A DNA stretch of 64,000 nucleotides from Microcoleus sp. (lineage in GTDB: Bacteria > Cyanobacteriota > Cyanobacteriia > Cyanobacteriales > Microcoleaceae), in contig JAYFMW010000020.1 of assembly GCA_042408215.1 (NCBI GenBank), positions 384,001 through 448,000 of the forward strand. The letters run 5' to 3'. The position numbers and the translations under genes are program-made. Positions 4,935-8,166 of the stretch are shown here, piece by piece (position 1 is the stretch's first letter; each line of letters starts with the position of its first letter). The notes beneath the pieces are model-generated. The model searched no databases, was not told the origin of the DNA, and saw only the letters and a list, made by a program, of their open reading frames with translations.

Positions 4935-5195
4935 ATGCCCTACAGTCAATTTAGCATCGAACAAATTAAGACAAATTTTGGCATAACTTTTACTAGGAGG
5001 GTTGGGTTGTTTGCCGATATTCCCGAAATCGAACCCAGCATTTTTTTGCAAGAAACTTTGCAATTCAATCTACCTTTAGCACTAGAAATAAATTCCGAGA
5101 AAGCTCGCTCCGAGCTAATTGTCGCGCCGATATTAGTTGAAATCAAAAAACGGCTGCCGGAACGGATGAGTTTATTTTCCGGTCGAGAATTCAAT
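4935..5195 (+). pseudogene. 5' half of interrupted PD-(D/E)XK-like conserved cyanobacterial protein
   Basis: MPYSQF...NSEKARSELIVAPIL...LFSGREFN ends exactly at the AAT preceding the inserted element. Confidence 0.85.
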
Positions 5196-5350
5196 AGACC
5201 TCTTGCAAAATAATTTTATGCTATAATCAAGGGTTTGGCTTAAGTGGAGCAGATTGCAGGTTAGATCAGCACTTTACAATTATGAGTTAGCTCTCAGGTC
5301 TAAAACTCAAAGCCTTTAATTCTAACATAGATTTTTTTTGCAAGAGGTCT
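5196..5350. mobile_element. Left MITE (AGACCTCTTGCAAAA termini)
   Basis: 15 bp perfect TIR, flanked by AAT on both sides. Confidence 0.85.
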
Positions 5351-5454
5351 AATTATTAACTCACTACCCATTCAACCATTACCTCTACGTTGCCTTTTTC
5401 CATAAAAGCCTAAACTTCAATCAGCCTTGAATCATAAAAACTGAGCCGCAATGA

Positions 5455-5560
5455 TATAGCGTTTCTCAGAAAGATGAGGTATGCCGAGGTATGCTGCAAC
5501 CCTTACAGTATCAAGCTTTTCTTGGCAAAATGGCACCTCACTTTTTAGAGAAAGGCTATA
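5455..5560. mobile_element. TATAGC-ended MITE-like element
   Basis: TATAGCGTTTCTC...GAGAAAGGCTATA with inner TGAGGT/ACCTCA repeat. Related copies at 14938, 42607 and 49818. Confidence 0.7.
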
Positions 5561-5578
5561 CCTCACGAAGGATTTGCG

Positions 5579-5665
5579 GCATAACGGTCTAGTTGAGCCG
5601 CTACAGATGACCTTTGGATTTTAAAGATCACTTTTGATGAAGTCGGCTCCAACGCAGTGTTAGGC
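5579..5665 (-). other. Integron attC recombination site
   Basis: Minus strand: R'' GCCTAAC, 5 nt, L'' GTTGGAGC, CGAC..., L' GCTCAAC, 6 nt, R' GTTATGC. Lies immediately after the stop codon at 5668. Confidence 0.85.
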
Positions 5666-5667
5666 GG

Positions 5668-5955
5668 CTATACGGGAGTAGCTCGTAAACGGATACCAAG
5701 TGATTGTATAACTCTTAAAACAGTAGCAAATTCTGGATTACCTTCGAGGGACAAAGATTTATAGAGGCTTTCACGTCCTAATCCTGTTTCACGCGCAATA
5801 TTTGTCATTCCCTTAGATCTAGCAATGTCACCCAATGCTGCTACCACTAGATTAGGATCGCCATCTTCAAGAGCGGCTTCAAGATAAGCTGCCATATCTT
5901 CTTTAGTTTCTAGATGCTTTGCTGCATCCCAAAGATAGGTTGGAACTTTGTTCAT
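5668..5955 (-). CDS. Addiction module antidote protein (HI1420-like HTH antitoxin)
   Basis: WDAAKHL...AYLEAALEDGD...ALGDIARSKGMT.IARETGLGRESLYKSLS..GNP. Confidence 0.9.
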   Translation of the reverse strand: MNKVPTYLWDAAKHLETKEDMAAYLEAALEDGDPNLVVAALGDIARSKGMTNIARETGLGRESLYKSLSLEGNPEFATVLRVIQSLGIRLRATPV

Positions 5956-5972
5956 GAGATCTCCTATAGGTT

Positions 5973-6250
5973 TTATGATAAGTCTAAGGCTGTTTTGATA
6001 TCCCGATCTTGGGTACGTTTATCTCCACCTGCAAGCAAGACAATTAACGTATTTCCTCGCTGTATGAAATACACGCGATATCCTGCACCATAGTCAATAC
6101 GGAGTTCTGACACACCTTTTCCTATCGGTTTTACGTCACCAGGATTGCCCATAGACAATCGCCGAATACGTCGATACGCGCCCTAGCTTCCCGATCGCGC
6201 AGTGATTTAAACCACCGAGAATAGATTTCAGTCTCCCGAATTTCAATCAT
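5973..6250 (-). pseudogene. Addiction module killer protein (HI1419/HigB-like RelE family toxin), frameshifted
   Basis: ATG at 6250 gives MIEIRETEIYSRWFKSLRDREARARIDV, then a frameshift near 6165-6170. RRLSMGNPGDVKPIG.GVSELRIDYGAGYRVY continues in another frame. Confidence 0.85.
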
Positions 6251-6256
6251 GCTTTG

Positions 6257-6285
6257 ATTGTATCCTATGAGATACGGAGAAACAA
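6257..6285 (-). promoter_or_regulatory. TA promoter with overlapping palindromic operator
   Basis: TTGTTT-17 nt-TACAAT, 6 nt before the toxin ATG; inverted repeat GTATC-N6-GATAC overlaps the spacer and -10. Confidence 0.6.
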
Positions 6286-6330
6286 GCAATAGGAAAACTT
6301 GCTTAACTACTTTTGTTCAAGCAAAGATAA

Positions 6331-6379
6331 GGTGCGTTACATTTCATTAACGCACCCTACAAGATCGGAGATCGCACTG
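6331..6379 (-). repeat. HIP1-like motif + GTAG-type REP hairpin
   Basis: CAGTGCGATCTCCGATCTT-GTAG-GGTGCGTTA-N7-TAACGCACC. Confidence 0.7.
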
Positions 6380-6420
6380 TCATTATGAATATGTGCAACG
6401 TCAATTTTATTCCCAATAAA

Positions 6421-6999
6421 TTAAATTTTCGGAAAACAAGCGTCAAATACTTCAGTTAAGTCAATGATTTTCGCCTGCCAAGCCGCTTCTCCTTCTAATG
6501 CTTTTAGCGCAGAACCTCGGATCATAAATACATTGTCACCTGGATAATCGTTATTAGACAACATCTCACGCACTTCCATTTCAACTAATACTAGTGCTTC
6601 ATCATCATCGGATATATCGCACTTGTTCAGAAATGTCGCAATATAGGGAATACCAGCCTGTTTTGCCATTTCGACCTGTTCACTGGTTTGCGATGTCAGC
6701 CCTTCGGTCACAGAAACAACTAGAATTGCGCCATTGAATTTAACATCCCCTGCAAGCACATTGTTCAAATCATCGGCATTACTTGGATAGTCAACATGGG
6801 TATAGTGACGCACTGGAGTATCGTATTCTACAGTATGAGAAGTCGTAATTTGCTCGAAGGAATTTTCTTGACCACCAAATCGTTTCGCCGTTACCTTGGA
6901 TAGTGCCGCAGTAAGTGTAGTTTTACCGTGACCTGTATGACCAATGGTAATAATATTGTTGTGCTGTTTAGTACGTTGAAATGCTTCTTGTGATGACAT
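6421..6999 (-). CDS. Truncated, divergent EF-Tu homolog (G domain only)
   Basis: Colinear with EF-Tu domain I: GHTGHGKTTLTAA, VEYDTPVRHYTHVD, GAILVV, FLNKCD, LVEMEVRE, GSALKALEG. Ends at the domain I/II boundary. Confidence 0.9.
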   Translation of the reverse strand: MSSQEAFQRTKQHNNIITIGHTGHGKTTLTAALSKVTAKRFGGQENSFEQITTSHTVEYDTPVRHYTHVDYPSNADDLNNVLAGDVKFNGAILVVSVTEGLTSQTSEQVEMAKQAGIPYIATFLNKCDISDDDEALVLVEMEVREMLSNNDYPGDNVFMIRGSALKALEGEAAWQAKIIDLTEVFDACFPKI

Positions 7000-7096
7000 G
7001 GTGTTAACCAGAAGTGTTGTTTTTTTGATTTATAGAGAACAATTAATTTTACTTTACAAGATCGCCTCAAACCATGAAAGCTAAAATGTTCATTCA

Positions 7097-7150
7097 GTAG
7101 AATGCGTTGGTTTGACATCAACACATTCTACAAGATAGGCGATCGCACTG
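7097..7150 (-). repeat. HIP1 motif + GTAG-type REP hairpin
   Basis: CAGTGCGATCGCCTATCTT-GTAGAATGTGTTG-N9-CAACGCATTCTAC. Confidence 0.7.
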
Positions 7151-7167
7151 CGTTAGTTAAGATTAAA

Positions 7168-7395
7168 TTACAGCTCAATTACATTGCCAGCCTGACGACC
7201 AAGTTTTTGGCTTGGGCTTGGTATAAAGGTAAATTCTACCCTCTGCCCTTTCTCCAAAGTTTTGAAGCCTCTCTTCGTCATCTGGATTGCAGAAAAGTGT
7301 ACGTATATATCCTCAGTGCCGTCATCTGAACAGATAAAGCCAAAACCTTTTTCAGCATTGAAGAATGTTACTGTACCCGTCATTTTTTCAGACAT
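7168..7395 (-). CDS. Cold-shock domain protein (CspA family)
   Basis: RNP1 KGFGFI, RNP2 [20 protein letters not shown]; 75 aa. Confidence 0.92.
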
Positions 7396-7432
7396 AAAAA
7401 CTTCCTAAAAGTTATTTACTTGGCTGTCTAAT

Positions 7433-7501
7433 AGACATCTCCTAAAAAGACTTTCAAGAACAGGCAAGATGCCTGTTCCACAATAATTATGGGAGAGGTC
7501 T
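7433..7501. mobile_element. 69 bp mini-MITE (AGAC...GTCT) containing a REP hairpin
   Basis: AGACATCTCC...GGAGAGGTCT with inner AACAGGCAAGATGCCTGTT; sibling at 21865-21933. Confidence 0.65.
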
Positions 7502-7548
7502 AGTTTATAATTGTATCGCAGTTGCGGTACAATACTATATACAGCGGA

Positions 7549-7578
7549 ATAATACCGCAGATCGAGGATGTATGTCAA
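7549..7578 (-). promoter_or_regulatory. Sigma70-type promoter facing the cargo genes
   Basis: TTGACA-18 nt-TATTAT about 150 nt upstream of the csp start. Confidence 0.55.
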
Positions 7579-7646
7579 CCCCTTCTTACTGCCCATCGGA
7601 ATCTCCTTTCCTCGATTAATTGCTCGATCGCCAAACTCAACCCAAT

Positions 7647-7824
7647 AGACCTATTGCAAAAAAAATATGTGTTATACTTAAAAGTTTGCTCAAGTTTAGG
7701 TCAAATTTTGGTCAAACTTTGAATTATTGGGTTGATTGGCATCTCCTTAAACTTGCCCAGCCTACTAAATCATAAAATTAGCTAGACTTTCTATAATAGC
7801 ACAAAATTATTTTGCAATAGGTCT
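7647..7824. mobile_element. Right MITE (AGACCTATTGCAAAA termini), inverted relative to left MITE
   Basis: 15 bp perfect TIR, flanked by AAT on both sides; subterminal sequences mirror the left MITE. Confidence 0.85.
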
Positions 7825-7827
7825 AAT

Positions 7828-8166
7828 GTGGATGCTGCTAGGGGCTTGAGCGGTTATTGCGATTTTCTAATTAGCCGATCGCCCGAACAGCTAGTCATTG
7901 AATCCCCAGTTGTCGCCTTGGTTGAAGCCAAAAATGATAACATTCAATCCGGCTTAGGACAGTGCATGGCAGAAACGATCGCAGCCCAAATATTTAACCA
8001 GCGTCAAGAAAATGACATTCAGACAATTTATGGAGTTGTCACAACTGGGAGTATCTGGAAATTTTTTAAGTTAGAAGGAATTGCGATCGAGATGGATACC
8101 AATGAATATTTTATCAATAATGTTGGTAAAATACTCGGTATCTTAATAAATTTTATAGAGTCTTGA
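7828..8166 (+). pseudogene. 3' half of interrupted PD-(D/E)XK-like protein
   Basis: [16 protein letters not shown]...LVEAKND...GLGQC...[13 protein letters not shown] continues the 4935 ORF in frame. Confidence 0.85.

Follow-up and report, generated by a model that had tools for sequence, protein, structure and literature searches.

The 192-codon open reading frame at positions 6421–6999, on the reverse strand of the window (the whole 64,000-nucleotide stretch of DNA that was analysed), encodes a mobile pseudo-GTPase that consists of EF-Tu domain I only and is under purifying selection. Translation, alignment, profile searches and a structure model identified its product as a stand-alone, catalytically dead EF-Tu domain I. 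The reading frame was intact, which ruled out a pseudogene with a premature stop codon. It was colinear from end to end with residues 1–201 of E. coli EF-Tu and, as the preliminary description of this DNA had claimed, ended at the linker between domains I and II. No frameshifted remnant of domains II and III was found in the window or at the locus of a related gene in genome G145 (L181; best E 3.0), and in the host genome these domains occurred only in two ordinary tuf copies. Gene content and the relatives met in genome searches indicate that the host is a cyanobacterium. Host contig C23 (32 kb) was largely a 98–100% duplicate of part of contig C28, with the str operon included, so that the presence of two tuf copies in the host may reflect a duplication made in assembly.

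The G-domain profile of translational GTPases (PF00009) scored 97 bits on the 192-aa protein against a cut-off of 26.5, and the full-length EF-Tu profile (TIGR00485) scored 205 bits against a curated cut-off of 522.4. Identity to Enterobacterales EF-Tu was 54–55%. An AlphaFold model had a mean pLDDT of 85 and TM scores of 0.90–0.91 to EF-Tu chains. In addition to this fold, the protein had the P-loop, D80, N135, D138 and GSAL in common with EF-Tu, with GKT and NKCD also kept, so that both the G4 (NKxD) and G5 (SAL) motifs were present. It differed from EF-Tu by the lack of domains II and III, by a switch I that was 12 residues shorter (seven residues in place of the 19 from I49 to V67 in E. 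coli), and by the substitutions D21G, G83S, and H84N. GHVDH thus read GHTGH and DCPGH read DYPSN, as first reported, and R58 was also lost. Both members of the catalytic pair, Asp21 and His84, were absent, which bore out the earlier statement that the catalytic His had been lost.

Both D21 and H84 are required for ribosome-stimulated GTP hydrolysis by EF-Tu (PMC5084732), while tRNA is bound by domains II and III and EF-Ts mainly by domain I (PMC11085428). The 192-aa protein is therefore predicted to be unable to work as EF-Tu. Judged by established EF-Tu biochemistry, it would neither carry aminoacyl-tRNA nor be open to activation by the ribosome. A guanine nucleotide would probably still be held, without switching, in a pocket whose base and alpha/beta phosphate contacts are mostly kept.

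Comparison of the window gene with the G145 gene over 186 codons yielded a dN of 0.21 and a dS of 1.08, corresponding, for this one gene pair, to a dN/dS of 0.20 (bootstrap 0.12–0.30); YN00 gave a value of 0.09. In 2000 simulations with 0.5 changes per site, a neutral reading frame remained free of stop codons in 0.3% of cases. Since the window and G145 genes have the same truncation and the same switch I deletion, selection acted on the short form, in line with the selection that had been suspected from the absence of stops. The gene of a second strain showed two non-silent and no silent differences, which are too few to weigh but point against purifying selection. Branches of the family to which the gene belongs were long (0.3–0.4, versus about 0.1 for ordinary EF-Tu). 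We consider it very probable that the 192-aa product folds and is under selection. In two RNA runs from a single study, whose contigs show presence only, no contig matched the gene at high identity.

Genomic setting of the gene

The gene is part of the cargo of a 2629-bp insertion (5196–7824) with AAT at 5193–5195 and 7825–7827. MITE-like elements with inverted ends, each flanked by AAT, form its left (5196–5350; AGACC...GGTCT) and right (7647–7824) borders. The insertion splits a PD-(D/E)xK gene on the forward strand into a 5′ half (4935–5195; residues 2–35 of the PADLOC PD_DExK profile) and a 3′ half (7825–8166; residues 37–140). These halves were contiguous in 19 of the 19 congener loci examined, which were those that matched the 3′ half best. 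The insertion thus combines a target-site duplication, inverted ends and an empty site in relatives, as in a MITE-bounded composite element. Its end motif had 11 matches in the genome at no more than one mismatch, four of which were the cassette's own, and its MITE ends were not found at other tuf-paralogue loci.

Further cargo genes all lie on the reverse strand. An HI1420-type addiction-module antitoxin gene (5668–5955; PF21716, TIGR02684) was intact, and the adjoining RelE/ParE-type toxin gene of the HI1419 type (5973–6245, start approximate) was frameshifted: TIGR02683 matched its 3′ part, and three-frame translation placed the 5′ part in another frame. A gene for a 75-aa CspA-like cold-shock domain protein (csp, 7168–7395; PF00313, 79.6 bits; best NCBIfam match CspA) is located 168 bp upstream of the G-domain gene. 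The RNA-binding face of its product is presumably altered, with TFFN in place of the usual KWFN. A promoter-like sequence (TTGACA-18-TATTAT, 7549–7578, reverse strand; 11 of 12 consensus positions) precedes csp by about 150 nt, and a terminator-like hairpin (6327–6360, reverse strand) follows the G-domain gene. The sequence arrangement gives csp and the G-domain gene the appearance of an operon. The number of promoter-like sites (four, versus 3.9 expected in shuffled sequences) was in itself no evidence, and that of terminator-like sites (one, versus 1.0 expected) was no more than chance. A 35-nt repeat at 6345–6379 overlaps the hairpin and recurs after csp, at 7116–7150. One contig in each of the two RNA runs matched csp without mismatch (7097–7274 and 7252–7436), for which library DNA is a possible source. 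In the second strain, csp had several minor differences close to its 3′ end. Positions 7425–7500, inside the cassette between csp and the promoter-like site, are occupied by a short repeat of the host that had about 159 BLAST matches across the genome.

Among 79 genomes of the genus, csp was present only in the strain's own (0 of 78 congeneric genomes), and it occurred in 12 of 143 other genomes of the family, mostly in two genera. A conserved linkage with csp was rejected: no csp lay beside the G145 copy of the G-domain gene, and the csp genes of G145 were on another contig. The G145 copy, the one other locus for which DNA was available, had no neighbours in common with the window, so that the conserved neighbours anticipated in the preliminary description did not materialise. 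Its neighbours are an IS630 transposase and small toxin-antitoxin or XisH/XisI-type genes.

The domain I family and its origin

Two protein searches (8000 candidates scored and the best 120 listed in each) and a cluster look-up yielded a stand-alone domain I family of 10 clusters with 26 member sequences, two of them partial. Intact homologues with the 12-residue switch I deletion, whose existence had been made a check on the first description, were found, the deletion being present in three clusters: that of the window protein, P0004 and P0005/P0122, the last with Planktothrix sp. PCC 11201 as source name. The switch I (G2) motif RGITI is thus deleted in these three and degenerate in the other seven clusters, whose named members came from a Thiolinea MAG and a 'Desulfobacteraceae' MAG. 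Although the clusters were only about 58% alike, the same end point was found across all 10. For the window and G145 genes, the stop codon was seen at DNA level; for the others, it was deduced from the shared end point and the length of the contigs. In database entries, the members appear as 'EF-Tu (fragment)' or 'GTP-binding protein'. The first ESM Atlas match was an 81-member cluster of 205-aa GTP_EFTU-only proteins, which may belong to the stand-alone family or be fragments.

D21G, I31L, A45S, D47E, Y87D, I92L, and G122A were fixed in all 11 aligned family members, none of which had R58, G83, or H84. G18, H22, G23, K24, D80, N135, and S173 were invariant. K136 was replaced by Q or H in 10 of the 11, and D138 by E in one; the earlier observation that GKT, NKCD and SAL are kept thus holds for the window protein, which alone retained NKCD, but not for NKCD across the family. 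In helix D, residues D142, E144, and E155 were invariant in eight family rows, and L148R, E152G, and R154C each occurred in single members, so that this helix was not strictly conserved. These proteins are a domain I-only family and not a decaying fragment. Upstream of position 8212 of L181, the non-coding leader of the G145 gene, read in frame, agreed with the N-terminal extension of P0004 at 15 of 16 residues; the proteins behind these sequences are just 72% alike, which suggests kept expression signals.

The family was patchily distributed. At E ≤ 1e-48, the G-domain gene had no match in 78 congeneric genomes and matches in three of 143 other genomes of the family: the stand-alone, 189-aa G145 copy and full-length foreign tuf genes in G136 and G060. 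In samples of 400 genomes from the order and 400 from the phylum, no match was better than 2.9e-55 (G145: 1.6e-74), and some of these matches were read. Pattern scans of contigs from genomes (80 of 139 loci kept) and metagenomes (80 of 564 kept) showed ordinary EF-Tu in every locus read. None of 37 viral contigs was confirmed, and phage records gave 14 matches of 43–54% identity. A gammaproteobacterial sample of 400 genomes had matches in two, both at 58%, the identity shown by ordinary EF-Tu; another genome was left unscored. As weak evidence on longer forms with the same deletion, the one candidate scored, out of 81, was a full-length protein with an intact loop.

In a tree of 44 of 90 rows from which the switch I columns had been dropped, the eight family rows formed one clade (support 100/99) among Enterobacterales-type EF-Tu (enclosing set 85/90), away from cyanobacterial EF-Tu. 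At the 29 sites that distinguish host tuf from the Enterobacterales consensus, the window protein matched the consensus at 17 and host tuf at three. Four-fold degenerate sites of the window gene, the G145 gene and the tuf gene of L182 were 58–67% identical, versus 30–32% expected from composition, a figure that shared codon preference could inflate; relative to host tuf, identity was 19%, versus 28% expected. The L182 tuf gene and P0062 were sister to the stand-alone family at 72/76. Consistent with the proposed horizontal acquisition, these patterns and the cassette with its empty site point to derivation from an Enterobacterales-type tuf that spread horizontally, although AU tests did not reject grouping of the family with cyanobacterial tuf (p 0.117) or with P0084 (p 0.151), or of the deletion subclade with P0084 (p 0.060). 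The lack of the insertion typical of cyanobacterial EF-Tu, previously taken as a foreign mark, was correct in so far as host tuf has a 10-residue insertion that the window gene is without; the insertion was, however, also missing from some ordinary cyanobacterial EF-Tu (L184–L187), so that its absence is not diagnostic on its own.

Full-length Enterobacterales-type tuf genes were present in cyanobacteria at L182 (7469–8650, G136), L183 (6532–7710), L188 (13–1227) and L189 (7995–9179, a Planktothrix agardhii plasmid record). All four had G83S and other switch changes and kept His84, and the L182 gene carried D21N, T61S, and G83S. The gene order of L182 was that of named P. agardhii plasmid records, and four named P. 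agardhii plasmids carried such a tuf behind an N6-methylase and a DruE-like helicase. The plasmid genes, annotated simply as tuf, resemble the stand-alone genes in being foreign and mobile, in changes at D21 and G83 (L182) and in shared four-fold degenerate sites; unlike these, they retain all three domains and His84. Such full-length genes may be toxin-resistant or dead EF-Tu spares. Six congeners (G020, G007, G015, G004, G010, and G002; L092–L097) had a second, diverged tuf of cyanobacterial type outside the str operon, with MIVG for MITG and intact catalytic motifs; by appearance, the flanks of two of these genes were tRNA-rich.

A second short form, the P0084 cluster (seven members of about 193 aa), had the same loop deleted and the same end point, with D21N, P82R, and H84N and without the changes fixed in the family. 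It was placed in another part of the tree (95/94), and an independent origin is likely, though short of proof. Outside the deletion it had four point changes at near-invariant sites, two of which were the catalytic D21N and H84N; the probability of such a coincidence, computed after the fact, was about 0.002. The cluster, made up of P0084 and P0134–P0139, is young and near ordinary EF-Tu, with domain I only, switch I deleted, D21N, and H84N or H84E, one member having a longer deletion. P0335 represented a third short form. Other degenerate EF-Tu modules were fused (to LRAT-like domains, an RNA polymerase alpha CTD or long uncharacterised N-termini) or arranged in tandem; these fused or tandem proteins included P0322, P0277, P0327, P0330, P0204, P0323, and P0191. 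Among 22 degenerate EF-Tu domains, D21 was changed in 14, D80 and S173 in none, and N135 and D138 in one each; the rows had been picked for lacking DCPGH or RGITI and having a P-loop, not on D21, and related rows are not independent.

Possible functions

The preliminary description had suggested a possible decoy or sensor for EF-Tu-targeting toxins or phage proteins, or an EF-Ts titrator, and had pointed to the Lit protease. The Lit cut site in EF-Tu, which we take to be Gly59–Ile60, lies in the loop that is missing here. Because this loop is deleted, a Lit-type cleavage decoy is impossible, and the 192-aa protein resists proteases that cut the loop and does not bait them. Most other known defence and toxin proteins that bind EF-Tu use domains II and III, as do Avs7 (PMC13581612) and the CdiA toxin.

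The favoured reading, to which we assign a probability of roughly one in three, is that a non-modifiable, switchless EF-Tu mimic soaks up factors that dock on domain I. It would offer its P-loop/helix D face to such factors, which could be TreTu-type antibacterial effectors or phage or defence proteins. With the modified or cut residues gone, attackers would be bound unproductively and the real EF-Tu would be spared. The dN/dS of 0.20, the support for the family clade and the predicted G-domain fold are consistent with such a role. TreTu, an antibacterial effector, ADP-ribosylates D21 and leaves D21 variants unmodified (PMC9825190), and it is D21, not D80 or S173, that was changed in most degenerate domains and, together with H84, in P0084. 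The caspase of type IV Thoeris, which is promiscuous, cuts EF-Tu after R45 and R59, and the same source confirmed EF-Tu as the Lit target (bioRxiv 10.1101/2024.10.24.620036). A precedent by analogy comes from conflict systems of multicellular bacteria (Kaur et al., 2020, PMC7159879), in which EF-Tu domains serve the EACC1-caspase system among its variable effectors and inactive copies of enzymes have been put forward as decoys. The mobile, toxin-antitoxin-rich settings and the related plasmid tuf behind a DruE-like helicase would also fit.

Several observations argue against the mimic. TreTu was modelled on helix D of EF-Tu, but the model also needs switch I in its GTP form (PMC9825190), and this switch is deleted here; Avs7 binds the missing domains, and helix D varies in single members. 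The 192-aa protein matched no PADLOC family, no neighbour was common to the window and G145 loci, the second strain differed by amino-acid changes only, and the gene is rare, being absent from the 78 congeners. Moreover, D21, R58, G83, and H84 are the residues freed once ribosome-dependent GTP hydrolysis is abandoned (PMC5084732), so that their loss also follows from giving up catalysis and does not single out a decoy. A wider reading, slightly less probable than the mimic itself, is that bacteria have repeatedly made EF-Tu domain I a free, mobile, non-modifiable decoy (at least in the family, P0084 and P0335) against toxins, phage proteins or defence effectors directed at the nucleotide face of EF-Tu.

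Alternatively, the dead G domain might act as a brake on translation, binding EF-Ts or the L7/L12 stalk via helix D and slowing elongation, for example in cold or stress together with the Csp protein; we regard this as unlikely. D21, H84, D109, and H118, presumably EF-Ts contacts of EF-Tu, are changed and domain III is missing. A predicted complex with host EF-Ts, from alignments of 9 and 12 rows, scored 0.01, which speaks neither for nor against a brake. In favour of a brake, EF-Ts binds mainly domain I (PMC11085428), helix D contacts both EF-Ts and L7/L12 (PMC9825190), and its residues D142, E144, and E155 were invariant. The apparent operon with csp, which has a promoter-like site before it and a terminator-like hairpin after it, also speaks for a brake, but csp did not accompany the G145 copy. 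Since EF-Tu is very abundant, titration of EF-Ts or the stalk would need high expression.

The gene could also be a long-lived relic of a harmful foreign tuf that was inactivated and stayed free of stops only through selection against misfolding or through hitch-hiking, with no positive function. The very patchy distribution, the long branches, the occurrence in cyanobacteria of full-length foreign tuf genes damaged to graded extents (L182, L183, and L188), the broken toxin gene next to it and the non-silent strain differences are compatible with this reading, to which we give a low probability. A nonsense allele would end a misfolding cost, yet both genes known at DNA level, like the full-length members of the clusters, were without one. 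The common end point across 10 clusters of about 58% similarity, the dN/dS and the match between the G145 leader and the P0004 extension likewise speak against a relic.

Use of the protein as a switchless sink or sensor for GDP, GTP or (p)ppGpp appears rather improbable. The invariance of G18, H22, G23, K24, D80, N135, and S173 in the family, and the near-constancy of D80, S173, N135, and D138 across the 22 degenerate domains, would be expected of a nucleotide binder, but these residues also stabilise the fold, 10 of the 11 aligned members have lost K136, one has E for D138, and no output domain or partner gene was present. EF-Tu has holdase activity, and a stress chaperone or other moonlighting role inherited from it would explain why the fold was kept and catalysis was not in a gene behind that of a CspA-like RNA chaperone; with csp linkage seen in one locus only, this role is very unlikely.

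Relation to known EF-Tu variants

The 192-aa protein did not fall into either of two described groups of unusual EF-Tu proteins. Like the EF-Tu effectors of the EACC1-caspase system, it is an EF-Tu module outside translation in a multicellular bacterium; those effectors are caspase-fused parts of a two-gene system (PMC7159879), whereas the window protein is free and has csp, the toxin-antitoxin pair and the split PD-(D/E)xK gene as neighbours. In a survey of translational GTPases, actEF-Tu2 was the sole distinct bacterial EF-Tu subfamily (Atkinson, 2015, PMC4342817). With actEF-Tu2 and Streptomyces EF-Tu3 the window protein shares the status of a divergent extra paralogue that escapes gene conversion. 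These are full-length actinobacterial paralogues that serve as condition-specific, antibiotic-resistant translation factors; the window protein consists of domain I only, would deliver no tRNA and is nested in Enterobacterales-type EF-Tu, with a gammaproteobacterial tuf origin. The literature covered, mainly outside subscription journals, did not describe a stand-alone family of EF-Tu domain I proteins, although the source data of PMC7159879 may list some members. The anatomy of the cassette adds to the preliminary description.

Proteins and systems that attack EF-Tu or borrow it include Lit, type IV Thoeris, TreTu, CdiA, Avs7, and Qbeta replicase, yet the one distinct subfamily in the survey, actEF-Tu2, is a working factor of full length. 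Retention of a truncated, dead EF-Tu copy in several unrelated bacteria suggests a job that has not been described, for example that of a decoy. Some 'EF-Tu (fragment)' entries in databases are real genes under selection. A selected, mobile pseudo-GTPase made of domain I only, apparently with more than one origin, suggests that this domain has a ligand yet to be described; the small size and predicted fold of the protein mean that the ligand could be named by a pull-down or nucleotide-binding assay. If the mimic reading is true, the most abundant translation factor of the cell would have supplied the material for a stand-alone immunity protein that works by target mimicry.
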